From an uncultured Gammaproteobacteria bacterium (GTDB lineage: Bacteria > Patescibacteriota > Patescibacteriia > Magasanikbacterales > UBA922): a stretch of 33,608 bases of DNA. The DNA lies in contig CAZCAB010000002.1 in the NCBI GenBank assembly GCA_964496615.1, positions 1-33,608 of the forward strand. Reading direction: 5' to 3'. Position numbers and translations under genes: made by a program. The notes beneath the pieces are model-generated. The model worked only from the letters and a program-made list of their open reading frames with translations, had not been told where the DNA came from and did not search any database. Shown here one piece after another: positions 2,249 through 29,978 of the stretch. Every line of letters starts with the position of its first letter. The first letter of the stretch is position 1.

Positions 2249-2320
2249 GGCCCGTTCGTCTAGTGGTTAGGACGCTGGGTTCTCATCCCAGTAACAGGGG
2301 TTCGATTCCCCTACGGGCTG
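2249..2320 (+). tRNA. tRNA-Glu (anticodon CUC), no encoded CCA
   Basis: Cloverleaf folded by hand. Acceptor GGCCCGT/ACGGGCT (G1-U72 wobble), D stem GTCT/AGGA... with GG loop, anticodon stem CTGGG/CCCAG, loop TTCTCAT, 4-nt variable loop, T arm AGGGG-TTCGATT-CCCCT, discriminator G. Confidence 0.85.
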
Positions 2321-2358
2321 CATGTGACCTCTCGTTTGTGAGGTCAATTAAAACCTGT

Positions 2359-3396
2359 ATGTCAGTGGAACAAATAGATCCAAGAGAAATCGAATCACTC
2401 AGAATGACAATCGAGCAACAAGTTCGACAATCTTGGGATGCCTTTCATAGTCCTAAGCTCAAAGAGCAAATAGCTAGACTGACACCAGAGCAAAAAAAGA
2501 TTGTGGAAAACATGGCAACATGGTTTGTTTTAGAGGAAAAATTGCGGTTTCTCTCAAAAGATAAGGAACGAAAAAAACTTCATCATGATTTTGTATTTAC
2601 GTCAGTAAAACCGTTAGGTGGCACAACAGAGGATGGAGAGTATTCGGGCATAGAACACCACAGAGCTAGGCTTGTTCACCGCCATGCCCCGAAAAACTTC
2701 TTTACCAGCTATGATCAAAGATTTACTCATAGTATTGATCCTCGCTTCTTTAGAGTGATGCAATTACCTGGGGCAACGAGAGACACTTCATATGCTCAAA
2801 TAATTCCACTACAGGATAACAGAGCGATCATCAACTACGAAGGATTTGCAGATGACTGTCCTGTAGATTCAAGAGGATCACACTGGTCATTTCGTCTGCT
2901 CACCCAAGAGGGCGACAAATCGATTGTTAATCTCCTGAGAACGAAAAGTGCAATGCTGCTACCATATGTGGCTCGGCTCGTTGTTACAACAATAGACCCA
3001 GAAGCTGCTGTCTACTGTGATGGAGGAATCCCTACAAAAAAATTAACTGTTATTGACTTTGAAAAACTCGCTGTTGCGCACCACAGTGGTGGCGCAAGCT
3101 CTGGTCCTCATGATGATGTTAAAGGTACTAGGTTCAGAGATGCTGACCGATTCGTAGAACACTTAAGGCCAGCATCTTCAGGACCTTACGCAAACACTCT
3201 AGGACAACCAGTCTTCAAACACGAAGTTGCTACTAACGACAAAGGGAGACGATTTGTCACTTTCTTTAGCGGTGCTCCTCCTGTATATCCCAAAAGCGAA
3301 TTTAAGAATAGTTTAGATATTGATGAAATGCAGCGAAGATATCCACCAACGCATCCAAAATATTTCTATTCTGAAAGGCACGAGCAGGAATCATAA
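2359..3396 (+). CDS. hypothetical protein (345 aa), orphan ORF between two tRNA genes
   Basis: Long ORF. The track start (2263, GTG) lies inside tRNA-Glu, so the first ATG after the tRNA (MSVEQIDPREIESL...) is used. No recognisable motif, signal peptide or TM segment. Confidence 0.55.
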   Translation: MSVEQIDPREIESLRMTIEQQVRQSWDAFHSPKLKEQIARLTPEQKKIVENMATWFVLEEKLRFLSKDKERKKLHHDFVFTSVKPLGGTTEDGEYSGIEHHRARLVHRHAPKNFFTSYDQRFTHSIDPRFFRVMQLPGATRDTSYAQIIPLQDNRAIINYEGFADDCPVDSRGSHWSFRLLTQEGDKSIVNLLRTKSAMLLPYVARLVVTTIDPEAAVYCDGGIPTKKLTVIDFEKLAVAHHSGGASSGPHDDVKGTRFRDADRFVEHLRPASSGPYANTLGQPVFKHEVATNDKGRRFVTFFSGAPPVYPKSEFKNSLDIDEMQRRYPPTHPKYFYSERHEQES

Positions 3397-5418: not shown

Positions 5419-5751
5419 CTATTTTTTCTTTTTGCCCTTTTTGAGGTCCTTTTTGATATTCCCCCACTGAGAAGAAAGAAGTTTAATAACTCCTTGTTTT
5501 ACATTCTGCGCTAACTTGTTATCAACTGCATAACGATTGACCACCTGCGTCACAACCTGTACGTATTCATGCTTGGTCATCTTCTCCCAGCTGCCAGATT
5601 TTTTAACGGCATCCTCAACTTGCGAATATAGATCTGCTGCGGTATCGAGCATTTTCTTTCGCATTTGCTTTCCTTTATCTGTGGTGTGCAACCAGGTAAG
5701 ACCCGCACCAAGAAGACCGCCCAAAAAAATACCTTTTTTAAATTTACCCAT
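5419..5751 (-). CDS. YtxH-like small membrane-associated protein
   Basis: 110 aa. Gly-rich N-terminal helix (GIFLGGLLGAGLTW) is followed by a charged helical region and a Lys-rich tail, resembling the YtxH domain architecture. Confidence 0.5.
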   Translation of the reverse strand: MGKFKKGIFLGGLLGAGLTWLHTTDKGKQMRKKMLDTAADLYSQVEDAVKKSGSWEKMTKHEYVQVVTQVVNRYAVDNKLAQNVKQGVIKLLSSQWGNIKKDLKKGKKKK

Positions 5752-5792
5752 ATGCTTTTTTTAGTGTTATGTGCTCAGTATAGCAAACAACC

Positions 5793-7010
5793 CTACACAC
5801 CTTCAACCAACTCTTCATATATTTTTTCTAGGCGTGCCACGATAGGGTCCCATGCATATTTTTCATCCGCTATAGTGCGTGCTTTTTCTTTCCACGCCTG
5901 TATATCGTTCTCCTTTGTATAATAGCCCATAATTGCCTCGGCAAAATCCTCGTGTGACCCAACTTGCGCTAAAATTCCCCCATCTTTCGCTACCGTGCGC
6001 ACACCAGGAAGATCGCTCGCAAGCACGGGTACCCCAGAACTCATTGCTTCTAAAAGCACCATACCAAAAGCCTCACCAACTGTTGTTGACGGAAGGACAC
6101 ACAAATCACCCATGCGATAATAAATTGGGAGGTCATCATCTGAAACCTTTCCAACAAAAACAGTTGTTTCTTCTATCCCCAACTGCTTTGTCATGGTGAT
6201 ATATTTTTGCCGCAAAGAACCGCCTCCCACCAAAACTGCTTGGACCGGCTTTGACCTATCTTTGACCATGGAAAGCGCACGAAGGAGCACGGGCACTCCT
6301 TTAAAATAGTGAGCAGGATCCATGCCCCCAACAAAAATAAGGGTAGGTTGGGTATGATCAAGTCCATACCTTTCAAAAAGCTCCTGCGGTTTGTCATCCG
6401 GAAAAAATCGATTTGTATCAACACCGAATGGCAATTCTCGCCATTTTGCCTTGTTTTTTTTATAAAAATCACCGACATCACTTTCTTGTATGTAATCAAA
6501 TGAACTTCCAATGATCATATCCGCGGCATCAAGAACCTTTGGCATCACACGATGCGCATAGTATTTGAATACAAGCCCCTTCCAACCCGGACCGCGCGTA
6601 TCCATGTGATATGTAATCACCAGCGCTTTATCAGGATGTCGTTGTTTCCATCGCCGCACGACGTTTGCGGTGCCAAAAAAAGGATAGTGCAAATGAACAA
6701 TATCGCTGTCCATGAGCTCATCTGAGATATTTGGTATGTACGCAGCATTGCCGTATTGCAGTTTTGGCGCTATGCGCTTTGCTACATCAATACGCTCTTG
6801 CACTTCAAAGCTATGTTCAACAAGCGGCTGCTCCTGCTTCGGTCGAATTTCCTTTCTCCCGAAATAATCAGGTGTTAGCACTTGCACCTCATGACCGCGA
6901 TCACCCAGATGCTGCGCCATCTGAAACACAACATTACCCATCCCCCCAAAATATGGTGGATAGGTAGATACGATGTGGGTTATCTTCATACCACTATTCT
7001 TTCCTGTCAT
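5793..7010 (-). CDS. GT4-family (GT-B, glycosyl transferase group 1) glycosyltransferase
   Basis: 405 aa with the C-terminal EAFGMVLLEAMSSGVPVLASDLPG (E-x7-E type) motif. An alternative start at 6989 (MKITHIV...) would remove the 17-nt overlap with the upstream gene. Confidence 0.85.
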   Translation of the reverse strand: MTGKNSGMKITHIVSTYPPYFGGMGNVVFQMAQHLGDRGHEVQVLTPDYFGRKEIRPKQEQPLVEHSFEVQERIDVAKRIAPKLQYGNAAYIPNISDELMDSDIVHLHYPFFGTANVVRRWKQRHPDKALVITYHMDTRGPGWKGLVFKYYAHRVMPKVLDAADMIIGSSFDYIQESDVGDFYKKNKAKWRELPFGVDTNRFFPDDKPQELFERYGLDHTQPTLIFVGGMDPAHYFKGVPVLLRALSMVKDRSKPVQAVLVGGGSLRQKYITMTKQLGIEETTVFVGKVSDDDLPIYYRMGDLCVLPSTTVGEAFGMVLLEAMSSGVPVLASDLPGVRTVAKDGGILAQVGSHEDFAEAIMGYYTKENDIQAWKEKARTIADEKYAWDPIVARLEKIYEELVEGV

Positions 7011-11042: not shown

Positions 11043-11100
11043 AATTTTGCTATCTTGTCTAGGCATAAGTATAGGCAAAAAAGCCTTTTTTTGCAATCAC

Positions 11101-12489
11101 ATGAAGTTTGTATATCATTTAAAACAATCTATCATAGCTGCGGGCGATCTCATCAGTTTTACAATCGGTTTTTTTCTTGCATTAAGTATCCGTCATTGGG
11201 AGCTCCCACTCATTTCCAATATCACACCTCTTGCGGGTATCTTTCTCACTGTTTTTTTGATATGGGTAGTCATCAACTACATTAATGCTCTGTACGATTT
11301 GTCCCCTCCGACGGATAAAATCTTCGCAAGGAGATTCATGGAAGCTGCCGTGATTTCGCTGATGGTGGGAATTGCTTTTTTCTATCTCGTACCGGAAAGA
11401 GGCATAACCCCAAAGACAATACTTGTTTTGAATGTCCTTCTCGGATATTCTCTTGCGTATGGCTGGCGGTGGCTGTATCACTACATGATAGGTGCTCGCA
11501 AACTTCAACTCAACATATTACTTCTTGGCGTAAGCCAAGAAGCTCTTGAAATAGTAGCTATCGCCCAAAAACATCCCGAAAAAGGCTATTCCGCGGTTGC
11601 AATTGTTGACCCGACAAAAGAGGTAAAAAACGGAGCGCATCACGGCATTGATGTCTATCACAGTCTAAGCGCACTCAGACCGGCAATTACAACACATAAC
11701 GTCCATATGGTTGTGGTGGCAGAGCAGTTTGAAAACAAGCGCGAAATGCTTACTGAGCTCTACCATCTTCTCTTTTGGCCGGTACAGATTATGGATGTCA
11801 CTTCATTTTATGAAAACTTAACAGGTCGCATTCCTCCATCAATTTTCTCCGAATCGTGGTTCCTACGCAACCTTAACACCGCAGAGAGGCCCATATACGA
11901 AAAAGCTAGACGAATAATCGACTCGATACTCACTATTATGCTAGGTATATTGTTTCTCATCTTATTCCCATTTGTTGCGTTCATGATTAAAGTAACATCC
12001 AAAGGACCAATCCTCTACACACAAAAAAGGGTTGGACAATTTGGAGAAATTTTTATTATTTACAAGTTTAGAACAATGTACGCGCTTGCTGATGACGGCT
12101 CCGCCGAACCAACAGGTGCCCAGTTTGCGAAAAAAAATGACAAACGAGTGACCCCAGTGGGTAAATTTCTTCGCAAAACTCGAATAGATGAATTCCCGCA
12201 GGTCATTAACCTACTCAAGGGTGAACTGAGTTTTATTGGCCCTCGACCAGAACGACCCGAAATTGTAGAAAAACTCGAAATTCAAATGCCGTATTATTCC
12301 TTAAGGCACATAGCTAAACCAGGTATTACAGGATGGGCTGCAATAAATCAGCATTATACGGATACACTTGAGACCTCGCTGCAAAAATTGCAGTATGATT
12401 TATTTTACATAAAAAATAGATCCTTGTTATTGGATCTATCAATTCTTCTTAAGACAATAAATGTTGTGATCAGAAGAATGGGGCAGTAA
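11101..12489 (+). CDS. polyprenyl-phosphate sugar-1-phosphate transferase (WbaP/PssY-type initiating phosphoglycosyltransferase)
   Basis: N-terminal TM helices, a central Rossmann-like region, and a C-terminal bacterial sugar transferase domain (KFRTM, DEFPQ, LKGELSFIGPRPERPE). The track start at 11047 is TTG, so the ATG at 11101 is preferred. Confidence 0.88.
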   Translation: MKFVYHLKQSIIAAGDLISFTIGFFLALSIRHWELPLISNITPLAGIFLTVFLIWVVINYINALYDLSPPTDKIFARRFMEAAVISLMVGIAFFYLVPERGITPKTILVLNVLLGYSLAYGWRWLYHYMIGARKLQLNILLLGVSQEALEIVAIAQKHPEKGYSAVAIVDPTKEVKNGAHHGIDVYHSLSALRPAITTHNVHMVVVAEQFENKREMLTELYHLLFWPVQIMDVTSFYENLTGRIPPSIFSESWFLRNLNTAERPIYEKARRIIDSILTIMLGILFLILFPFVAFMIKVTSKGPILYTQKRVGQFGEIFIIYKFRTMYALADDGSAEPTGAQFAKKNDKRVTPVGKFLRKTRIDEFPQVINLLKGELSFIGPRPERPEIVEKLEIQMPYYSLRHIAKPGITGWAAINQHYTDTLETSLQKLQYDLFYIKNRSLLLDLSILLKTINVVIRRMGQ

Positions 12490-13405: not shown

Positions 13406-14518
13406 CTACTTAATATCATCAATTCCGATAGGATCAAATTTCTTTAAATCATGTATCACCTCTCTCCCAATGATACTATCATACTTTTCAGATGGTAGTC
13501 CATCTATATCAGCTTGTGGACGCATTGCATATATCATCTGCGGCTTGATACCTGTTCCTGTTGGTATATCCTGCCCTGCGACAAGCGACTTTCTAAAAAC
13601 TGGACGGAATGCCTGCTCTTCATCTTGTAATAGCTTCTCTTCTTGTGAGAGCGCCTTCTTGGCAAACGCTGATTCGAGCATTCTCTCTTTTTTTAAGGGA
13701 TTAGAAGCGAGTTCATCAAGACTACTTCTCAGTAACTTTAGCTCATTGGGTGTCATCGACACCTTATGGTCTGGCCCCCAGGCATCGCGAGACAATGTGA
13801 AGTGTTTCTCGACAACACTTGCGCCTGCAGCGTAGGCCACTAAAGCTGATTCTATCCCAAGGGAGTGATCAGAAAACCCTATCGGTATGCCTAATCGTTG
13901 TCTCAAAGTCTTAATTGTCCCAAGACGCAGATCCTCAGGTGGACATGGATATTGGGACACACAATGCAGTACCATCACCAGAGCATTTTTTTTCATCACG
14001 AATGATACCGCTTGCTCCACTTCCGCAAAAGTACTCATTCCTGAAGACAGGATGATGGGTTTTCCTGTATTTCGCAAGTAATCTAGAAGAACGAAATCAA
14101 GAATATCCGCTGAGCCAACTTTCCATACCGATATATCCAAGTCCTCAACACGCTGCGCTGCACCCCGACTCATTGGTGTCGTCATGAAGACTATTCCCAA
14201 ATCGTCACAATACGTTTTAAGCGGCCTCCAAAATGTATCCAGCGGTGTTGATATGGTATTACGCCGTACCCATTCGTATCGTTCAAGTCCCTGATAATGG
14301 GGAGAATCTACATCACGACCAAGTTGTTCATCCTCTACGTTGTGCGTTTGCCACTTGATTGCATCAGCTCCACCTGCCACAGCTTCGTCAACAATTTTTT
14401 TTGCAGTATTCAGATACTCCTCCACCGATTTTTGCTCAGCTGATTGAATAAAATTCTTACCTGCCTCTGCGATAAGAAAAGGTCCATCAATCATCTTTTG
14501 CCATACGTCACCTGTCAT
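13406..14518 (-). CDS. divergent NeuB-family (PEP-dependent nonulosonate synthase-like) protein with C-terminal SAF-like domain
   Basis: FLIAEAGKNF...ADAIKWQTH N-terminal region, HCVSQYP and GFSDHS metal-ligand contexts, VEKHFTL, and a C-terminal LVAGQDIPTGTGI SAF-like segment. The track start at 14542 is TTG, so the ATG at 14518 (with upstream GGTGA) is preferred. Confidence 0.68.
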   Translation of the reverse strand: MTGDVWQKMIDGPFLIAEAGKNFIQSAEQKSVEEYLNTAKKIVDEAVAGGADAIKWQTHNVEDEQLGRDVDSPHYQGLERYEWVRRNTISTPLDTFWRPLKTYCDDLGIVFMTTPMSRGAAQRVEDLDISVWKVGSADILDFVLLDYLRNTGKPIILSSGMSTFAEVEQAVSFVMKKNALVMVLHCVSQYPCPPEDLRLGTIKTLRQRLGIPIGFSDHSLGIESALVAYAAGASVVEKHFTLSRDAWGPDHKVSMTPNELKLLRSSLDELASNPLKKERMLESAFAKKALSQEEKLLQDEEQAFRPVFRKSLVAGQDIPTGTGIKPQMIYAMRPQADIDGLPSEKYDSIIGREVIHDLKKFDPIGIDDIK

Positions 14519-14529
14519 ATCAATCACCA

Positions 14530-15834
14530 CTACAAACTCCAATATTCCAGACCCTCTTGCTCCACTTCTTCTCTAGAGAAGATATTCTTTAAATCAGCAC
14601 AGAGCAATTTCCCCTCATTCATTAAACCTTTCAGTTCTTGAGCTGTAATCTTCTTGAACTCATCGTGGGCCACTGCGATGATAAGAACGTCTGCTTTTGG
14701 TAAATCATCTTTGTCAGACAACACTATTCCATACTCACGCTCAACCTCCGCTGGATCAGCAAGTGGGTCATAGACGACAGGCTGGACACCAAAATCAATT
14801 AATTCGTGGTACAACGAAGCCACCTTGGAATTTCGCACATCACGCACATTTTCCTTAAAAGTAACACCATAAATTAAGAATTGGGACGATTTTACATCTT
14901 TGCCCATGCGAACCATGGTCTTAATGATCTGACGAGCAACAAACTTATGCATGGTATTGTTTATTCCTCTGCCAGCTAATATGACCTCTGGTGTGTGTCC
15001 AACAGACTCCGCCTTATACGTCAGATAGTATGGATCAACACCAATGCAATGTCCGCCCACAAGACCAGGAGTAAATTTTAGAAAATTCCACTTAGTTCCC
15101 GCGGCCTCTAGTACGTCGTGCGTATTAATGTCCATTTTGTTAAACAAAATAGCAAGCTCATTCATCAAAGCAATGTTTAAATCACGCTGCGTGTTTTCGA
15201 TGACTTTTGCTGCCTCTGCAACTTTAATAGATGACGCACGAAATACGTTGGTGATTGTCCCGTACACTTGAGCAATTGCATGCGTCGTCTGATCATCCAT
15301 CCCAGCCACCACTTTTGTTACGCGATCAATAGTATGTTCAGCATCACCAGGATTAACCCGCTCAGGAGAATAGCCAACAAAAAAATCTTCGCCTGCAACT
15401 AAGCTGGATTCGCCTTCCAATGCAGGTATGCATTCTTCTTCGGTTGCACCTGGGTACACTGTTGATTCAAATACTACTATGGCACCTTTCGAAAGATGTT
15501 CTCCAACGAGAGCACTTGCGCGTCTGAGAATTGTTAAATCAGGTACATTTTTTTCATCAACGGGAGTTGGAACCGCTACGATGATAAATTTAGAACGAGT
15601 AATCACTGATGGATCGACACTAAAATTAATTCCGGAATTGCAAATCGTTTCAGAATCGAGCTCCCCGGTCCCGTCATGGCCCTGTTTCAACAGGTCGACC
15701 TTCTTCTCATCAATATCAAATCCAAAAACTGAAAAAGTTTTAGAAAGAAGTACTGCTAAAGGTAAACCTACGTAACCGAGACCGACCACACAAACATGCT
15801 CTCTCCTTTGTGTCAAATCCTCAAACAAACTCAT
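14530..15834 (-). CDS. UDP-N-acetyl-hexosamine 6-dehydrogenase (WbpO/TviB/CapL-like nucleotide-sugar dehydrogenase)
   Basis: VVGLGYVGLPLAV Rossmann motif and the GGHCIGVDPYYL catalytic Cys motif typical of this subfamily. The start at 15834 overlaps the ugd stop as ATGA. Confidence 0.8.
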   Translation of the reverse strand: MSLFEDLTQRREHVCVVGLGYVGLPLAVLLSKTFSVFGFDIDEKKVDLLKQGHDGTGELDSETICNSGINFSVDPSVITRSKFIIVAVPTPVDEKNVPDLTILRRASALVGEHLSKGAIVVFESTVYPGATEEECIPALEGESSLVAGEDFFVGYSPERVNPGDAEHTIDRVTKVVAGMDDQTTHAIAQVYGTITNVFRASSIKVAEAAKVIENTQRDLNIALMNELAILFNKMDINTHDVLEAAGTKWNFLKFTPGLVGGHCIGVDPYYLTYKAESVGHTPEVILAGRGINNTMHKFVARQIIKTMVRMGKDVKSSQFLIYGVTFKENVRDVRNSKVASLYHELIDFGVQPVVYDPLADPAEVEREYGIVLSDKDDLPKADVLIIAVAHDEFKKITAQELKGLMNEGKLLCADLKNIFSREEVEQEGLEYWSL

Positions 15835-17216: not shown

Positions 17217-17293
17217 AGAAATATGTGCTACATACTCTATATGAAATAAGGCAATAAATCAAGCCATCACTGTGAGTAATTCTGCAGAAAAAC

Positions 17294-17322
17294 TTGACAA
17301 CAAAGGAAAAAAATGCAATCAT
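17294..17322 (+). promoter_or_regulatory. candidate promoter of the GC-rich gene
   Basis: TTGACA (17294-17299), 17-nt spacer ending in TGC (extended -10 like), AATCAT (17317-17322). A GGAGGA Shine-Dalgarno at 17350-17355 precedes the ATG at 17360. Confidence 0.35.
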
Positions 17323-17359
17323 GTTCTTGTATCGATCCACACCTATCTTGGAGGAAGCC

Positions 17360-18697
17360 ATGCGTCGAGTCATGACGATCACCTTTTTTGTTGTCTCGAT
17401 GCCTGGATGCGTCGAGAAATTCGAGCCTGCTGGCCAGTCCCTTGATGAGAACTCGGGTGACGAAGGCGGGCAGGAAGGCGACGAGGGAAACGCAGAACCC
17501 GATCCTGACGAAGGCGGGCAGGAAGGCGACGAGGGAAACGCAGAACCCGATCCTGACCCCGATCCTGACGAAGGCGGGCAGGAAGGCGACGAGGGAGAAG
17601 GTGAAGGGGAGGGCGAGGATGACCGCGTGATCAACTGCGGTGACGACAGTCACTGTGTCGACATCACGAACATCTGTTCGTGCGATGACGACAACAGCAT
17701 CTATTGCGAGCGTAAGACCGGCACGTGCACCGCAGGTCGCTGCGACCTTGAGCCGGTGCTCGTCAGTGCTTGCCCGTTTGGTTGCGATCACGAGCTCAAT
17801 CAATGCCGCCCCGCACCGTGTCCCGAAGGTGACACTTGCTGCGAAGGTGATGAGGAAGAGCCCCCATGTAACGGATGTCCCGAAGGGACAATCGTGCCCG
17901 AAGGCACGGTCTGCGTACCAGGAGGTGAATTCCGAATGGGTAGCCCAGAGGACGAAAATGGTCGGGACGGTGCGAACGAACGCCAGATCGCAGTCGCCCT
18001 CACCAACGCCTTACTGGTCGCGCGTACAGAAATCACGCAGTTCGAGTGGGAGCTCGTGATGGACCATCGCCCATCGTCACGGGAAGACTGTGACAACTGC
18101 CCGGTCGAGCAAATCGCCTGGGCTGACGTGGTCGCCTACGCCAATAGCCTCTCGACTCAGGATGAGCTGAATCCCTGCTATCTGAACGAAGATGGTGAGG
18201 TCTACGGCTCGCAAGACGCCGAGAATCGTCGAGCAGTGGTGTGGCAAAATGGGTATGATTGCGAAGGGTGGAGGCTCCCAACGGAAGCTGAGTGGGAGTA
18301 TGCCACACGGGCAGGAACAACCACACCCTGGTGGTGCGGTGAGGATCCTGAATGCCTCGAGCAAACCGAATGGTACCTGCGAAATGCCCAGAACGGATCT
18401 CATGAAGTCTGCCTCAAAGAGGAAAACGCATGGGGCCTGTGCGACACCGTCGGCAACGTCATCGAGTGGGTCTGGAACTGGTATGGACCTCATCCGGACT
18501 TGGAGGAGACACTCATCAATCCGCGAGGACCAGAAGGTGACGGGAACAACCCGAAGGTGTTTAAGGGGTGCGGTTACGTACTCCCGGCGGAATCATGTCG
18601 TAGCGCGAGTCGCCTGTCAGGTCGACCGTTCGAGGAGATCGCCCCCCACGTCGGCGCACGTCTCGTGAGGAAGGCATCGCAGATCGGCAATCTGTAG
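17360..18697 (+). CDS. putative lipoprotein with acidic repeat linker, Cys-rich region and FGE/SUMF1 (formylglycine-generating enzyme family) domain
   Basis: Signal plus lipobox-like MRRVMTITFFVVSMPGC. A DEGGQEGDEGNAEPDP repeat linker and many Cys residues follow. FGE-sulfatase signatures GGEFRMGS, WRLPTEAEWEYATRAGTTTPW and GNVIEWVWNWY are present. G+C is far above the flanks. A strong SD supports the ATG at 17360. Confidence 0.85.
   Translation: MRRVMTITFFVVSMPGCVEKFEPAGQSLDENSGDEGGQEGDEGNAEPDPDEGGQEGDEGNAEPDPDPDPDEGGQEGDEGEGEGEGEDDRVINCGDDSHCVDITNICSCDDDNSIYCERKTGTCTAGRCDLEPVLVSACPFGCDHELNQCRPAPCPEGDTCCEGDEEEPPCNGCPEGTIVPEGTVCVPGGEFRMGSPEDENGRDGANERQIAVALTNALLVARTEITQFEWELVMDHRPSSREDCDNCPVEQIAWADVVAYANSLSTQDELNPCYLNEDGEVYGSQDAENRRAVVWQNGYDCEGWRLPTEAEWEYATRAGTTTPWWCGEDPECLEQTEWYLRNAQNGSHEVCLKEENAWGLCDTVGNVIEWVWNWYGPHPDLEETLINPRGPEGDGNNPKVFKGCGYVLPAESCRSASRLSGRPFEEIAPHVGARLVRKASQIGNL
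17459..17596 (+). repeat. in-frame 48-bp tandem repeat: two perfect copies, a 12-bp spacer, then a 30-bp partial third copy
   Basis: 17459-17506 and 17507-17554 are identical (gacgaaggcgggcaggaaggcgacgagggaaacgcagaacccgatcct). 17555-17566 is gaccccgatcct. 17567-17596 repeats the first 30 nt. Confidence 0.92.
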
Positions 18698-18797
18698 GGT
18701 GCCTCTCCAAAAAAGCTCCACAAACCAACGAGGGTCAGGAGCGCCCTCATTCACCTGCGATATTGATATATAATAAATCGATGGTGCAGGAGAATAT

Positions 18798-18821
18798 AAA
18801 AAATCTCTGTTGAGATTTTTT
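18798..18821. terminator. bidirectional hairpin terminator between convergent genes
   Basis: AAAAAATCTC-TGTT-GAGATTTTTT lies between the FGE-like gene (+) and the end of the long minus-strand operon, overlapping the HAD stop codon by 2 nt. Confidence 0.5.
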
Positions 18822-19488
18822 ATATTTGTCTAATATTACTTGAAACTTTCAAAAATAGGTCAGAAAGCGAATCGACTATTACTTCTCTTTCTGAAATGAC
18901 TCCAGGTTGCCATTTGTTAAACTGATTCGCAAGACCAAAAAAAGGAATATTGCAAGATTGCGCTGCAAGCATATCACTCTCACCATCACCGACCATGCAC
19001 GCCCGTTCCCTGTCATATCCGTTCTCTAAAAGAATCAGGTTAATGACGTCAGTTTTTTTTCTCGGACTCCCATAGCATCCCTTAAAGAAATTTCGTATCT
19101 CAAGTCCATCAATAGTTTCCTGCACTTGCTCTTCAGGCGTGCCCGTGATTATGTACAAATCAGCATCATGTGAAATTTCCTTGAGGAGCTCTTGGACGCC
19201 CGGGTTGAGACCCCTGCTAAGTATCTGCCGCTGAATACAATCGTTGTATGCTTTCGCATAGTGTTCAACCGTACGATCAATATCGTCTTTACCTACACCG
19301 CAAGCAGTAAATGTTCGCTCCAATATCTCATAGCGAGATTTTTCTCTATGAGTAAAGAGTACATCGTCCATTGCACGATGTAACCTCTCATCATCTGCAG
19401 GGAGAATGTCAAAAAATGCATCAAATTTGAGTTGATTAGAATCAACTATAATACCATCAAAGTCGAAGAAGACAGACCGAGAAGGCAT
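18820..19488 (-). CDS. HAD-superfamily phosphatase (subfamily IA-like)
   Basis: Motif I FFDFDGIIVDS, motif II IITGT, motif IV MVGDGESD. It is the last gene of the operon, 6 nt after the NeuB-cupin gene. Confidence 0.8.
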   Translation of the reverse strand: MPSRSVFFDFDGIIVDSNQLKFDAFFDILPADDERLHRAMDDVLFTHREKSRYEILERTFTACGVGKDDIDRTVEHYAKAYNDCIQRQILSRGLNPGVQELLKEISHDADLYIITGTPEEQVQETIDGLEIRNFFKGCYGSPRKKTDVINLILLENGYDRERACMVGDGESDMLAAQSCNIPFFGLANQFNKWQPGVISEREVIVDSLSDLFLKVSSNIRQI

Positions 19489-19494
19489 ACTGGA

Positions 19495-21030
19495 CTACTC
19501 AAATTGATACCTACCCCAGTTGACCAGCTTTGTCTTTCTATCCTCCCGTTTCATGTTATTAATTGAATGATCCTCATATATTGAATCATTATTGTAGTGA
19601 GTTGTTGACACCTCCTCAAAAACAACACCCGTCTCTGTTGAGAATCCATGACGAACACCTCTTTGAACAAGTAAAGTATCCCCTGGATACAAACGGCGGA
19701 CACGACCTTCAATGTCAACATCAAGCTCTCCCCACAAAATTTGAAATGACTCTTCTTTCTTCTTGTGGTGGTGAGATGGATTCCGTTGTCCAGCCATTTG
19801 AACAAGTATTTTCTTACAATACTCACGATTGATACACGTAATGATCGCAACACCAGCTTCGTGAAAATTCTCAAGTCCATAATGATGCGATAGCTCGAGA
19901 TCAAAATCATACCCTACATGAATTTTTGCGATGTTAAGCATTCCTCGAATCTCGTGAATAGAATGATAGATAATTTCTGCATTCGTCTTCTTAAGACCTT
20001 TGAGTGCATCACTACTCACAGGATCATTCTTCTTGTATGATCTATCAGCTATATGTCCTGTGCTCCACTCCCCACTCGTCAGTTGACCCTCCTGAAGTGG
20101 AATTGAAAAGAAAACATCTTCATCTTGAATGACTTCTCCTGCTTGGATATCCTTTTTTACATAAACACCACGAAGTAATGTCTTAAGAGATGCCATCTCG
20201 CTCTCTGCGGCCGCAGGCCTTATATCACTCCCACAGGATTCTTTCGCTTCTTTATACGCTCGTATCCACTGCTCGAGTTGTTGTGGTGTTGAAGAATATG
20301 CATTTAGATTGATCTCACTTGTCGCTACGCCAACATGTCTTTCAAAAAGCTTTGCACCCTTTGCACACGCTATCTGAACTGCTGACATGTTATCCGGATG
20401 TTCATGAGTTGAAAATCCGATCGGCACATGATGATACCGTGCACGCAAATTATCTATCTGATTGAGCTGAAGCTGATCATGAGGTGTCGGATATATAGCA
20501 ATGCAGTGCATGAGTGCAAACTGCACATCCTTATGATCTAAAAAGCTTACCAACTTATCAATATCCTTGATCGACAGACCTCCAGTTGAGACAATCATCG
20601 GCTTACCTGTGGCTGCCGCCTTTTCTAAAAGGGGCCAATCGCGAGCAGAACAACTCCCAATCTTCAATATTTCAACACCGAGTTTCACAAGTGTATCAAC
20701 TGAATCCTCATCAAATGGTGTACTCATGGTAACTAATCCACGCGCGCGCGTATGCTCGACCAAGGCCTTAAATTCATCTTCGCTTAGGCGAGTCGAAAGA
20801 AAACGTTGTACATGCTTGACATCGTCCCTTTCTCTAAAATCAGGATGGATAAATGTATCCAAATTTCGAAATTGCAACTTAACAGCAGCCTGAACCCCCA
20901 TGTTCTTTGTTACTCCTCCGTGCTCATCAATTATCCTCTTACCATGCTCAACACTACCCTGATGGTTGTTAGCCATCTCGAGTATAAACAGGTCAGAGAA
21001 AATTGAATTGTCCTTGTTCTGAATCGCCAT
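19495..21030 (-). CDS. NeuB-family synthase fused to SAF and C-terminal cupin domains (511 aa)
   Basis: N-terminal ILEMANNHQGS...VKLQFR, then CIAIYP, GFSTHE and FERHVG NeuB motifs. A SAF-like VYVKKDIQAGEVI segment follows. The C-terminal cupin motif 1 fits G-x5-HxH-x4-E-x6-G (GQRNPSHHHKKKEESFQILWG, G codon at 19789-19791), and motif 2 is approximated by PGDTLLVQRGVRH. Confidence 0.8.
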   Translation of the reverse strand: MAIQNKDNSIFSDLFILEMANNHQGSVEHGKRIIDEHGGVTKNMGVQAAVKLQFRNLDTFIHPDFRERDDVKHVQRFLSTRLSEDEFKALVEHTRARGLVTMSTPFDEDSVDTLVKLGVEILKIGSCSARDWPLLEKAAATGKPMIVSTGGLSIKDIDKLVSFLDHKDVQFALMHCIAIYPTPHDQLQLNQIDNLRARYHHVPIGFSTHEHPDNMSAVQIACAKGAKLFERHVGVATSEINLNAYSSTPQQLEQWIRAYKEAKESCGSDIRPAAAESEMASLKTLLRGVYVKKDIQAGEVIQDEDVFFSIPLQEGQLTSGEWSTGHIADRSYKKNDPVSSDALKGLKKTNAEIIYHSIHEIRGMLNIAKIHVGYDFDLELSHHYGLENFHEAGVAIITCINREYCKKILVQMAGQRNPSHHHKKKEESFQILWGELDVDIEGRVRRLYPGDTLLVQRGVRHGFSTETGVVFEEVSTTHYNNDSIYEDHSINNMKREDRKTKLVNWGRYQFE

Positions 21031-23333: not shown

Positions 23334-24392
23334 CTATGATTCGACATCAGACCATTGAACAATGGTGCTCACTTGCATATCTTTACTCGCCTTTTTACCC
23401 AAAAAAGAGCCACTATATCTTTCATCCAAGTACTTTGCAGGTATTCCTGTTCCTGGCCGACGAGGCTCAACATTATCGAGTGTAAACTCATCCCCTTGAG
23501 TTATCTGCTTCGAAGTTACCACGCTATGATGGGCCCAATCCCGCACTGTTTGCTCCTCAGCACTTATTTCTTTTTTACAACCAAGCGAAGCCTCAATTTT
23601 TGATACTCCCTCGACTAAATCCACTAAATCTGCCGGCTCCAAGGAAATAAAGTGATCAGGTCCTGATTGATCGCGTGACAGTGTAAAATGCTTTTCCACA
23701 CAAGCTGCACCCAAAGCCGTTGCAGCATACGCCGTGAAATTATCGATCGTGTGATCGGACAGACCTACAGGCACATCAAAAGTGCTCTTCATTTTCTCTA
23801 TCATGCCAAGATTGATGTGGCTGTAATCTTTTGGAGGATACTCGGAAACGCAGTACATGAGTACAAGATGATCTTTAGCGCCTACCTCTTCATAGATACT
23901 GACTGTTTCTGCTATTTCTTCAAAAGTTGACATCCCAGTTGATACAATGATGGTTTTACCAGAACTCTTTGCAATAGTTGCTAATTTCCTATGCATCGGT
24001 AAATGTGTAAGCTCTCCGGATCCAACTTTGTATCCTGCCACACCAATGTCTTCCAACACATCAATCGCTGCGGGACAAAAAGGAGTACAAAGATATTGAA
24101 TGCCGACCTGCTCACAATAGTCTTTTATTTCTCTATGCATTTCAGGAGTGAACAAATTTTTCTTGAGAATATCATATAGTGGTCCATCCCACATCTGAAT
24201 TGACCCTGGCACCATTTCAACATCTGGAAGATGGAGCTGAAATTTGGCAACATGTGCGCCCGCTTTTTTAGCCTCATCCACCATTCGTTTTGCCGTCTGC
24301 ATGTCCCCATTATGAGAATCTGCTATCTCCACAATGATAGCTGTTGGTGCATCAGATCCTATTGATATATTTCCTAATTGACGAGTATGCAT
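23334..24392 (-). CDS. neuB: N-acylneuraminate (nonulosonate) synthase, canonical-length NeuB with SAF domain
   Basis: IIVEIADSHNGDMQTAKRMVDEAKKAGAHVAKFQ, YCVSEYP, GLSDHT and VEKHFTL motifs, plus C-terminal SAF (VVTSKQITQGDEF). Confidence 0.88.
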   Translation of the reverse strand: MHTRQLGNISIGSDAPTAIIVEIADSHNGDMQTAKRMVDEAKKAGAHVAKFQLHLPDVEMVPGSIQMWDGPLYDILKKNLFTPEMHREIKDYCEQVGIQYLCTPFCPAAIDVLEDIGVAGYKVGSGELTHLPMHRKLATIAKSSGKTIIVSTGMSTFEEIAETVSIYEEVGAKDHLVLMYCVSEYPPKDYSHINLGMIEKMKSTFDVPVGLSDHTIDNFTAYAATALGAACVEKHFTLSRDQSGPDHFISLEPADLVDLVEGVSKIEASLGCKKEISAEEQTVRDWAHHSVVTSKQITQGDEFTLDNVEPRRPGTGIPAKYLDERYSGSFLGKKASKDMQVSTIVQWSDVES

Positions 24393-28244: not shown

Positions 28245-29978
28245 TTACAACTGGTATTTTGCTCCAATACCCAAGCCATCATAGTGAACATGGTCGATTG
28301 ATTGAAAATCAAAATCCACGAAAATAGCCCATCCATCAAATAGCAAGCTCGGTCGCGCAAGTGTCTTCACTAATGAATAAATTCCTAGATCATAAAAAGA
28401 ATGATGGTTATTAAGAACCACAACACAGTCTGCATTCATGAATCCATTTTCAACCGATGTTGGGGTCACATCAAGTGTCTGTAACTCTTCATCAGCGACA
28501 ACAGGATCATGGACATATATGTTCTTATATTCTTTTTGTATCTCCTGCATGATTTCAACTCCAGTGGACGATCGCAAATCAGAAGTTTCAGGTTGTCCCT
28601 TAAAGGCAAGTCCCATTATGAAGATTTTAGGGTCTGTCACACCTCGTTTATGAGTACGCAGAAAAGTAATTACTTTTTGGGCAACAAATGAAATCATGCT
28701 CTCATTTATATCACGACCAACGATCGGTAGCTTAGGTGTGTACGATATAGACTCGGATGATTTCATAAAGATGAAGGGATCCTTAGTAAGACATGCCCCG
28801 CCCACACCCGGGCTTGGTACTGGAATATTGTTTCGGGGATACCCCAAATTTGCGGCCTCAATAACCTCATACGTATTGAGTGAAAAGCCATCCATAACTT
28901 GTGATAATTCGTTGGAATATGCGAATGTTAAATCCCTGTACGTGTTATTCACGAGCTTTACAGCTTCTGCAGCCTCCAGCGTACTTACCATGCGGATCGA
29001 TCTCACAAATTCTTTAAAGAGATTAGCAGCTAAGTCTGAACTTGCTTTGTCATATCCACCAATTACTTGAGGAATGCTACGTATCTCTTGAAGCGCCACC
29101 CCTTCGGCTGTACGCTCCGGCGCAAATGCAACAAAGAAATCTCTGCCCGCTTTGTAATCGGTTTCTCTCTCAAGAATCGGAATAACAAAGTTTCGACATG
29201 TACCAATTGGTACTGTCGAACGCAAGACAATCAGATCATTTGGTTTGAGTATCTTTGAGATAACCTTTAGCGAGCTTTCCAAATATTGCATTTGGACTGT
29301 ATTTGTATCATCGACAGGAGTTCCAACACATATGATGTAAACATCACTTACACCCTCTTGAAATTCACTCGTAACAATAAATCTGTTATCAATATGGCGT
29401 TGCAGTAATTCATCAAGACCCTTTTCAAAAAAATGTGATTTTCCGGTGCGCAGCTGCGCAACCACGGACTCCTTAATATCAACGCCAATAACCTCAAAAC
29501 CGACTTCCGCCAAGGTGAGTGCAAGCGTGAGACCCACGTAACCTAATCCGATGACTCCAACACGGCGAGTTTTAACCTCACTCATCTTCCATAGCTCAAA
29601 AAAAGAGTACACATCAGTTGGTCTTCTTTGATCATCCACCAAGATCACTTTATCAATTGCATTGTATGGAATATTTCGTGCACGTATCTGTTCAAATACA
29701 CGTGGTAGCATGTTATGGACAGGCACATCGGATTCGATCGTGATTGGATCTGTTGTCATTATCTCGCCCACAGAAACATCGAGGTTAAATCCACTTAATA
29801 GTGCTCGACGAATATCGCCATCAGTAACAACACCTTCAAGTATGCTATTGCTATCAACAACAAGTACTATTCCGTGCAGCACCTCTGAATCACCGCCCAC
29901 ACCATGAGTTATCATACTCATGACTTCCTTTATTGTGGCATGTCGATTTGTTTGTAGATGATTGTTTCTGATCTTCAT
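28245..29978 (-). CDS. CBS-pair fused to a UDP-sugar 6-dehydrogenase (WecC/UDP-ManNAc dehydrogenase-like)
   Basis: N-terminal approx 130 aa carry CBS motifs (ATIKEVMSM...GIVLVVD...LEGVVTDGDIRRALL). These are followed by VGVIGLGYVGLTLALTLAE Rossmann and GVGGACLTKDP catalytic Cys motifs. Confidence 0.8.
   Translation of the reverse strand: MKIRNNHLQTNRHATIKEVMSMITHGVGGDSEVLHGIVLVVDSNSILEGVVTDGDIRRALLSGFNLDVSVGEIMTTDPITIESDVPVHNMLPRVFEQIRARNIPYNAIDKVILVDDQRRPTDVYSFFELWKMSEVKTRRVGVIGLGYVGLTLALTLAEVGFEVIGVDIKESVVAQLRTGKSHFFEKGLDELLQRHIDNRFIVTSEFQEGVSDVYIICVGTPVDDTNTVQMQYLESSLKVISKILKPNDLIVLRSTVPIGTCRNFVIPILERETDYKAGRDFFVAFAPERTAEGVALQEIRSIPQVIGGYDKASSDLAANLFKEFVRSIRMVSTLEAAEAVKLVNNTYRDLTFAYSNELSQVMDGFSLNTYEVIEAANLGYPRNNIPVPSPGVGGACLTKDPFIFMKSSESISYTPKLPIVGRDINESMISFVAQKVITFLRTHKRGVTDPKIFIMGLAFKGQPETSDLRSSTGVEIMQEIQKEYKNIYVHDPVVADEELQTLDVTPTSVENGFMNADCVVVLNNHHSFYDLGIYSLVKTLARPSLLFDGWAIFVDFDFQSIDHVHYDGLGIGAKYQL

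Follow-up and report, generated by a model that had tools for sequence, protein, structure and literature searches.

The subject of this report is a single gene on the plus strand of contig CAZCAB010000002.1 (positions 1 to 33,608; the whole 33,608-nt stretch is called the window below), which encodes a 445-aa protein with a domain of the formylglycine-generating enzyme (FGE) type. This protein is denoted P0001 and its orthologue on the contigs L001 and L002 is denoted P0002. We consider it probable that P0001 is a long-resident, fast-evolving accessory surface lipoprotein of Patescibacteria with a lectin fold, and that its gene goes back to an old horizontal gene transfer (HGT) from a bacterium of high G+C (GC) content. 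The original prediction, made from the sequence of the window, had taken the gene for a recent, still unameliorated acquisition. This dating has to be given up: a syntenic, equally GC-rich orthologue is present in L001/L002 between genes with saturated synonymous sites, so the transfer is not recent. In other words, we find what the prediction itself had named as evidence against it.

P0002 is the only full-length homologue of P0001 among 5.8 billion protein clusters (41-45% identity, 99% coverage), and the contigs that encode it, L001 (72 kb) and L002, were assembled independently from two samples. The P0002 gene directly follows the same pair of dehydrogenase genes as the gene in the window and, again as in the window, it is antisense to all of its neighbours. 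The window and L001 loci also have in common a Shine-Dalgarno (SD) sequence with a 4-nt spacing, the motif C-V-E-x-F-E-P after the lipobox, all cysteines of the stalk, a 3' hairpin rich in GC with CATTCACC after it, and an AT-rich terminator. The GC content of the P0002 gene is 0.576 and its GC content at third codon positions (GC3) is 0.623, as compared to 0.39-0.44 and 0.30-0.42, respectively, in 16 neighbours. Neighbour-joining (NJ) trees, built from 70 and from 100 FGE domains, have the domains of P0001 and P0002 as sisters (192/200 and 147/200 bootstraps).

The six flanking genes common to the window and L001 are 67-87% identical at the protein level, and a seventh one, cut at the end of the locus, is 91% identical. 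At 4-fold degenerate sites the identity of the flanking genes is only 0.23-0.38, i.e. near random, with nonsynonymous divergence (dN) at 0.09-0.28 and NG86 synonymous divergence (dS) undefined or above 3, i.e. the synonymous sites are saturated. The P0001/P0002 gene pair has a 4-fold identity of 0.38, which is nearly randomised as in the flanks, and a dN of 0.53. The GC content of the 4-fold sites is 0.62 and 0.52 in these two genes vs. 0.22-0.44 in the flanks.

The compositional contrast itself is strong. The GC content in 300-nt bins is 0.57-0.61 over 17401-18600 and 0.35-0.48 in the rest of the window. The GC content of the open reading frame (ORF) is 0.591, whereas the other 25 ORFs have 0.426 +/- 0.017 (z = 9.5); the corresponding GC3 values are 0.637 and 0.374 +/- 0.024 (z = 10.8), and the tetranucleotide distance of the island is 0.693 as compared to 0.249 +/- 0.026 in 85 other 1.4-kb windows (z = 17). 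The foreign composition and the G/C-heavy third codon positions of the original prediction are thus confirmed by sliding GC, GC3 and tetranucleotide tests alike; the GC content was indeed elevated, although the proposed figure of 62-67% was somewhat too high, since only some 40-nt bins reach it and the mean is 59%. Back-translation of P0001 with the codon usage of the window gave a GC content of 0.498 and a GC3 of 0.379, so the amino acid composition accounts for less than half of the GC excess and for none of the GC3 excess. The 5' border of the GC-rich block falls within the signal-peptide codons and the 3' border lies 62 nt beyond the stop codon. We note that a recently acquired islet is recognised by its atypical composition, which the window gene has by all three z values, and by being missing at the same site in relatives, whereas in L001/L002 the gene is present, syntenic and equally GC-rich.

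The absence of an obvious vehicle had been predicted and is borne out: there is no integrase, transposase or reverse transcriptase among the 26 ORFs of the window, and a repeat search of the 33.6 kb revealed no flanking direct or inverted repeats beyond chance. No plasmid or phage carrier was found, the plasmid and phage records having at most 34% identity, to the FGE domain alone, and the viral contigs gave only one weak match of 84 residues. As for the features of an integron cassette, GC-rich 3' hairpins are present, neither an integrase nor a cassette array is found, and promoter and SD sequence belong to the gene itself. A 9-mer, TCATTCACC, is located at the 3' edges of the GC-rich blocks of the window (18746-18755) and L001 (11468-11476) and in the 5' intergenic region of L018 (1626-1634), a contig with a related gene. 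It occurs once in the window, about 0.03 matches are expected by chance in L018, and it may be due to chance or be a leftover of a common boundary sequence.

Five further proteins, P0090, P0135, P0146, P0138 and P0210, group together in the FGE tree as a second clade (clade B). GE-rich linkers are seen in P0090 and P0135, and MopE-like Cys repeats precede the FGE domain in four of the five proteins, P0210 being the exception. On all four contigs that were read (L018, L020, L021, L022) the gene is oriented against its neighbours. Synteny was found between L018 and L021 (ATPase similar to those of type IV secretion systems (T4SS), small ORF, FGE gene) and between L021 and L022 (FGE gene, cysteinyl-tRNA synthetase (CysRS)); the CysRS of L021 is 62-71% identical to named Ca. 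Magasanikbacteria enzymes. The FGE proteins of this clade are 48-62% identical, as compared to 65-83% for the flank proteins. The clade-B genes have a common 3' untranslated region (UTR; L021 6543-6665, L022 3020-3140, L020 1842-1965, L018 3428-3506) with a GC-rich stem-loop, GGGCTCGCA-CGTCTCAnCAACGTC-TGCGAGCCC, that contains three compensatory pairs, is followed by ATCAACAT and has no match in Rfam. About 150 nt of 5' leader are also conserved between L021 and L022. Positions 1-46 of L020 (minus strand) carry a partial tRNA (29.9 bits in Rfam), which is truncated where the contig ends; the GC-rich FGE gene follows about 175 nt downstream.

An empty site was found for clade B. In L024, the flanks have 91-99% protein identity to L021 (84% for CysRS) and the FGE gene is missing: the 2.3-kb FGE cassette of L021 (4478-6787) is replaced by 63 bp (reverse complement of L024 4548-4610), with the left break directly after ATATTGACAAA. 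The DNA identity is 95% in the left flank and 85% in the right flank (CysRS), which suggests a recombination mosaic at this locus. At the junction equivalent to that of the window, the Hainich aquifer lineage (L005, L008, L009) has an unrelated GC-rich (0.62-0.70) antisense ORF, so this junction took up foreign DNA more than once. The ORF of L005 adjoins an AbiEi/AbiEii pair, it is provided with an SD sequence and an AT-rich promoter of its own, and its stop codon is followed by three hairpins rich in GC; none of the defence-system models matched it. Such a gene is missing from the more distant relatives L003, L007 and L010, and none of their bins is GC-rich. The locus is thus one of a small family of GC-rich antisense single-gene islets in Patescibacteria, which are polymorphic for presence and absence. 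We found no description of a GC-rich gene family in Patescibacteria in the literature.

In general terms, there is good support for the gene having come horizontally from a lineage of high GC content, probably one similar to Myxococcota. DNA was available for three homologues (Table 1), namely P0004 and P0054 from the neighbouring branches of the FGE tree and, in addition, P0018; all three genes are native to high-GC DNA. The named relatives with the MopE-plus-FGE architecture (lipoprotein, Cys-rich region, FGE domain) belong to Bradymonadia, Myxococcota or 'Deltaproteobacteria'. The ratio of GARP to FYMINK residues is 1.7-2.4 in the Patescibacterial FGE domains, with a family median of 2.0, vs. 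a median of 0.84 in the host proteins. With respect to the high-GC donors originally suggested, the Myxococcota-like affinity is upheld by the native homologues, with GC contents of 62-73%, and by the named relatives, whereas nothing points to Actinomycetota.

The open frame of the gene extends over 17294-18697 and the likely start is the ATG at 17360; an identical 445-aa protein is in the database from this contig alone. The predicted architecture is confirmed as far as the acidic linker, the Cys-rich module and the FGE domain are concerned, the lipobox being non-canonical at position -2. In the N-terminal sequence MRRVMTITFFVVSMPG-C the n-region is positive, the core is hydrophobic and position -1 is Gly, whereas position -2 is Pro (SMPGC, as compared to [LVI][ASTVI][GAS]C), hence the status of a lipoprotein is likely, not proven. 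Canonical lipoboxes are found in the relatives P0002 (LATSC) and P0090 (LIGC), and the pattern Cys followed by x-x-x-F-x-P is common to P0001, P0002, P0090, P0135 and P0146.

The linker contains a 48-nt tandem repeat detected by TRF and a repeat finder, with two perfect copies (17458-17553) and a third one of 79% (17566-17613), which encodes DEGGQEGDEGNAEPDP. P0002 has no such repeat, which points to a recent slippage duplication in the linker of the window; the linker may be variable in length. For the Cys-rich module, neither Pfam nor NCBIfam gave a match at E values up to 1-10, and HMMER, run exhaustively against 1.84 billion cluster representatives, found P0002 as the sole real homologue. 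All Cys residues of the module are kept between the two proteins. The AlphaFold model of P0001 has a mean pLDDT of 82.5, with values above 90 in the FGE domain. No defence-system model matched P0001.

As to the FGE domain, PF03781 matches with 123 bits (cut-off 23.3) over positions 4-255 of the 255 positions of the profile. The best PDB match by sequence is TvpA of Treponema denticola (2Y3C, E = 6e-25), true FGEs being at about 1e-9, and TvpA is also the best structure match in Foldseek (E = 2e-21, TM score 0.80 normalised to the target). The residues equivalent to the Cu(I)-binding pair of the human enzyme, C336/C341, are Leu/Cys in P0001, Ser/Leu in P0002, and X/Cys or X/Ile in the second clade, i.e. 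the first Cys is found in no member. With the Cu-binding Cys pair missing, the head would be unable to make formylglycine and is most likely a binding module. On the basis of its sequence and structural model, P0001 would be an exported, stalked, non-catalytic lectin-fold protein.

The local expression signals named in the original prediction are all present, i.e. a TTGACA promoter candidate, a GGAGGA SD sequence and a terminator shared with the convergent HAD gene (Table 1), the promoter and SD sequences being AT-rich and host-like. The promoter is weak evidence in itself, since three sites were found in the region with 1.5 expected; a TTGACA(A) element is found upstream of the gene in every relative. 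The whole 3' UTR (18730-18827) folds into three hairpins (z = -4.7), and the L001 counterpart of the terminal palindrome (3' region L001 11450-11520) keeps its stem via compensatory changes, TCTC/GAGA to TCCC/GGGA. No known RNA family was found in the UTRs with Rfam. Most simply, we infer, the GC-rich 3' hairpins are the donor's own terminators that were carried along with the gene.

On the reading we prefer, horizontal transfer most likely brought in the gene and its GC-rich 3' hairpin as one piece, and the gene came under AT-rich local expression signals. This acquisition is older than the split of at least two lineages whose common genes are now saturated at synonymous sites, and since then the protein has evolved 2-5 times faster than its neighbours. 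A Sec-type signal peptide would export the protein and Cys17 would probably carry its lipid anchor, the acidic, disordered linker (about 70 residues) would hold it off the membrane, and a disulfide-rich stalk would follow, with the FGE-like head of the C-type-lectin fold at the end of the protein. The ligand of this putative binding module is possibly on a partner cell, or a glycan.

It is conspicuous that the GC-richness has persisted. In the six genes of the two clades the GC3 is 0.62-0.68, i.e. offset by +0.20 to +0.28 from that of the hosts (flank GC3 0.33-0.50). The decay was calculated with a crude relaxation model (F81/HKY toward a host 4-fold GC of about 0.37), in which the dS per lineage is at least about 1, a lower bound derived from the mean 4-fold identity of the flanks, 0.32. 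In this model, the initial deviation shrinks to about 0.2-0.3 of its value since the split of the window and L001. The direction of ongoing change was read from synonymous changes between L021 and L022 polarised with outgroups; the counts of changes from G/C to A/T vs. the reverse were 33:9, 31:13 and, with two outgroups, 18:1. A saturated GC-rich outgroup alone biases this ratio to about 1.9:1, and two outgroups to about 3.8:1. This bias is in the same direction, so the excess does not decide between amelioration and equilibrium. The persistence may be caused by selection, by GC-biased conversion or by re-import of alleles, or the gene may have started out very GC-rich and ameliorated slowly.

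Several points weigh against an old transfer followed by residence as an accessory lipoprotein. The relaxation model predicts a GC3 of at most about 0.50-0.57 even from 0.95-1.0 at the split, and 0.62-0.64 is observed; the discrepancy is of the same kind for L018 and L021, so plain old HGT with passive decay fits uncomfortably. No donor with the same Cys-rich module was found in about 15 billion proteins, and the donor lineage is thus deduced from the FGE domain and the general architecture only. The Kimura distances are as large as 0.8-0.9, and NJ is the only method behind the trees. The assignment of the window to its host is based on the genes of the glycan cluster, which are themselves prone to transfer. 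Finally, the function is read from fold and sequence only, and the lipobox is non-canonical.

A recent transfer, or two independent recent acquisitions at a common insertion hot spot, would account directly for the strongly atypical composition, and for a GC3 above the passive-decay prediction. It would also agree with the lack of the gene in L003, L007 and L010 (UDP-glucose dehydrogenase 61-63% identical), with the empty site in clade B and with the unrelated GC-rich antisense ORF of L005, L008 and L009 at the equivalent junction. Yet the orthologue shares with the window gene the junction, the strand, the SD spacing, the post-lipobox motif, the 3' hairpin and the terminator, the two proteins are sisters with a module found nowhere else, their 4-fold sites are nearly randomised, and no donor closer than 41% was found in the 5.8 billion clusters, plasmids, phages and viral contigs, so we regard a recent date as improbable. 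That a high-GC fragment was mis-joined into a low-GC contig could be suspected since the window is a complete metagenomic contig; both junctions are conserved in L001 and L002, from two other samples, which effectively excludes a chimeric assembly. Moreover, the same pattern recurs on four further contigs of other assemblies, the ORF crosses the 5' composition border in frame, and the SD sequence and the terminator suit the gene. A more serious alternative, though still an unlikely one, is that the GC-richness is actively maintained, by selection on mRNA or DNA, by GC-biased conversion at a recombination-prone locus, or by overwriting from a pool of GC-rich alleles. The near-constant GC3 offset despite saturated within-clade divergence, an amino acid composition that is still of the high-GC type, and the L021/L024 mosaic speak for it. 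Against it, the net loss of GC among the polarised synonymous changes is what ongoing amelioration predicts (with the outgroup bias mentioned above), there are no paralogous copies or silent cassettes in the window, and the GC-biased conversion effects reported in bacteria are far smaller than 25 points. Combined with a Patescibacteria-specific family of fast-evolving surface lectin-fold lipoproteins, whose GC-richness would be kept by selection, biased conversion or re-import of alleles from Myxococcota/Bradymonadia-like partners, maintenance makes up a broader account that we hold to be doubtful, roughly a one-in-four matter. In its re-import variant, competent episymbionts would take up DNA of their high-GC partner organisms.

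With respect to function, the Pfam FGE-sulfatase domain and the downstream operon of L001, which has a sulfotransferase and an ATP-sulfurylase/APS kinase, could suggest that P0001 is a true formylglycine-generating enzyme or another enzyme of the superfamily (PvdO, EgtB) that serves the glycan cluster, for instance in sulfatase maturation. This is very improbable: the Cu-binding Cys pair is missing in P0001, P0002 and all clade-B members, there is no sulfatase among the 26 ORFs of the window, the NCBIfam scores are far below the cut-offs (PvdO 53 vs. 500, EgtB 32 vs. 360, OvoA 11 vs. 400, SenA 12 vs. 420), clade B is found in unrelated contexts beside a T4SS-like ATPase and CysRS, and the protein appears to be exported and stalk-bearing. 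Little probability is likewise left for the gene being the target of a diversity-generating retroelement (DGR), as that of TvpA is, with the retroelement elsewhere in the genome. DGR variable regions are usually C-terminal, and here the C-terminal 70 residues or so align poorly between the orthologues; the top match by sequence and by structure is the DGR variable protein TvpA. DGRs have been reported in Patescibacteria (PMC11661182). The divergence of the orthologues is spread along the entire protein, there is no reverse transcriptase in the window or in 21 kb of L001, and no copy of any part of the gene that resembles a template repeat was found in the 33.6 kb, and we therefore rejected this reading.

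Table 1. Positions of the features in the window and on related contigs, and composition of related genes
Feature	Position	Strand	Evidence or composition
GC-rich block, about 59% GC within DNA of about 42% GC	17392..18759	+	Cumulative (GC-0.5) change points, 40-nt and 300-nt GC profiles, tetranucleotide z = 17
Coding sequence, 445 aa, FGE-like (SUMF1/EgtB/PvdO superfamily), probable lipoprotein	17360..18697	+	ORF list; Pfam PF03781, 123 bits
Signal peptide MRRVMTITFFVVSMPG and Cys17 (putative lipidation site), then VEKFEP motif	17360..17410	+	Motif conserved in relatives
Acidic D/E/G/P-rich linker, predicted disordered	17411..17620	+	AlphaFold 2 pLDDT <50 for residues 12-86
Cys-rich module, aa 88-185, about 20 Cys, predicted beta-hairpins	17621..17914	+	pLDDT 69-89
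FGE-sulfatase / C-type-lectin-like fold domain, aa 182-437	17903..18670	+	Pfam E = 2e-35
Sigma-70-like promoter candidate, TTGACA, 17 nt, (TG)AATCAT	17294..17322	+	Consensus scan, 10/12 matches
SD sequence GGAGGA, 4 nt before ATG 17360	17350..17355	+	Sequence; GGAGGA + 4 nt + ATG also in L001
GC-rich 3'-UTR hairpin GAGGGU...GCCCUC, then CATTCACC	18730..18748	+	Fold; alignment with L001 3' region (conserved)
Second 3'-UTR hairpin	18754-18790	+	Fold of the 3' UTR
AT-rich perfect palindrome, likely bidirectional terminator, common to the convergent HAD gene	18792..18827		16-bp stem in minimum free energy fold
HAD gene, convergent with the P0001 gene	18820-19488	-	
NeuB-family synthases (3)	13406-14542; 19495-21030 (cupin fusion); 23334-24392		
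CMP-sugar cytidylyltransferases (3), UDP-GlcNAc 2-epimerases (2)	Within 12496-32960		
UDP-sugar dehydrogenases (3), one with N-terminal CBS domain	28245-29978 (CBS form)		
Unrelated 372-aa ORF at the equivalent junction	L005 7316-8434; L008 about 5700-6900; also L009	- (L005)	Weak TPR matches only; contig GC 0.38-0.42
Clade-B gene, L018			Gene GC 0.608; GC3 0.670; flank GC 0.41-0.43
Clade-B gene, L020			Gene GC 0.605; GC3 0.654; flank GC 0.47
Clade-B gene, L021			Gene GC 0.621; GC3 0.681; flank GC 0.44-0.49
Clade-B gene, L022			Gene GC 0.606; GC3 0.628; flank GC 0.43
Homologue P0004			Contig GC 0.62; gene GC 0.61; shares GEGEGEG...PPCNGCP junction
Homologue P0018			Contig GC 0.68; gene GC 0.70
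Homologue P0054			Contig GC 0.73; gene GC 0.73; beside PEGA and Ser/Thr kinase genes

The ORFs of the window encode BacA, a class B penicillin-binding protein, glycosyltransferases, a subtilase and the products of nonulosonic-acid genes, and the density of the latter in 12496-32960 is unusual for a Patescibacteria contig. The best species-representative matches of the UDP-glucose dehydrogenase beside the P0001 gene are from Ca. Paceibacter (63%), a Patescibacteria metagenome-assembled genome (61%) and Magasanikiibacteriota (54%), and the block of peptidase S8, sugar transferase, epimerase and dehydrogenase is syntenic in the contigs of those relatives. Paceibacter belongs to Minisyncoccota, the former Patescibacteria or CPR (candidate phyla radiation). 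The P0001 gene had been described as the only plus-strand gene beyond 12.5 kb, and this holds when ORFs of 150 aa or more are considered. Only two other sizeable genes lie on the plus strand, a 377-aa ORF with a GTG start and no Pfam match (2263-3396) and a sugar transferase (11047-12489). The right flank of the locus is variable: the window has the HAD and NeuB-cupin genes where L001 has an operon, convergent with the FGE-like gene (L001 11553-17094), that encodes a sulfotransferase, a fused ATP-sulfurylase/pyruvate-kinase-like protein and an APS kinase, which is suggestive of a sulfated glycan.

By itself, this accessory gene for a surface protein of horizontal origin is nothing out of the ordinary; what is unusual is only that its composition has persisted. 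It provides a small yet clean counter-example to the dating of transfers by GC deviation, and the second clade, at another locus, agrees. The proteins of this family, which are exported, stalked and of the lectin fold, change faster than those encoded beside them and are variable in occurrence, and they are reasonable candidates for cell contact in ultra-small episymbiotic bacteria. If the Myxococcota/Bradymonadia affinity reflects physical association, it provides a testable lead on the identity of the host. If a maintained family of the kind outlined above is in fact what we see, the gene would act in host contact, and its composition would give a hint as to the hosts of Paceibacteria and Magasanikbacteria.

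When compared to known systems, the locus resembles a classical islet in the sense of Lawrence-Ochman amelioration, i.e. it is a single gene with atypical GC, GC3 and tetranucleotides and a patchy distribution among relatives. The window gene differs from such islets by having no tRNA, integrase or repeats, and its atypical composition has outlived a divergence that saturates the synonymous sites of its neighbours, which the framework does not predict. The closest relatives in architecture are the Myxococcota/Bradymonadia proteins (e.g. P0054, P0068, P0171), which have a lipoprotein signal, an acidic or GE-rich linker, a Cys-rich region and a C-terminal FGE domain; in the FGE-domain trees no outgroup is nearer, and the window gene resembles them in GC content. 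There, in contrast, the GC content of the gene equals that of the genome, the identity of the FGE domains is at most about 40-45%, and the Cys-rich module of the window is not the MopE motif and has no homologue. A related protein with MopE repeats, P0183, has no FGE domain.

Among the proteins of the FGE type, PorK/GldK and GldJ of the type IX secretion system (T9SS) and gliding machinery of Bacteroidota are lipoproteins with a non-catalytic FGE-like domain as well, and P0001 has partial matches to them in NCBIfam and a Foldseek match to PorK. The scores of P0001 are far below the cut-offs (37 vs. 350 bits for TIGR03525, 25 vs. 458 for TIGR03524), neither PorN nor any other T9SS partner gene is found among the ORFs of the window, and its host, as a Patescibacteria bacterium, is presumably devoid of an outer membrane. 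With the true FGEs (human SUMF1, Streptomyces coelicolor, Thermomonospora curvata) P0001 shares PF03781, the fold (Foldseek E of about 1e-14) and the motif NxWGLxDxxGNVxEW, which is similar to a Ca site. It differs from them by the lack of the Cu-binding Cys pair and of a nearby sulfatase gene, and the sequence match is confined to residues 302-423 (E of about 1e-9). TvpA (variable protein 1), the DGR-diversified surface lipoprotein of Treponema denticola, is the best match by both sequence and structure: both proteins appear to be exported, both have the FGE-like fold without FGE chemistry, and the C-terminal part of the domain is variable. The DGR of TvpA has no detectable counterpart in the window, the identity is only 26%, and P0001 has in addition the acidic linker and the unique module of 20 Cys. 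P0001 is a further member of a known superfamily, and its Cys-rich stalk module is novel.

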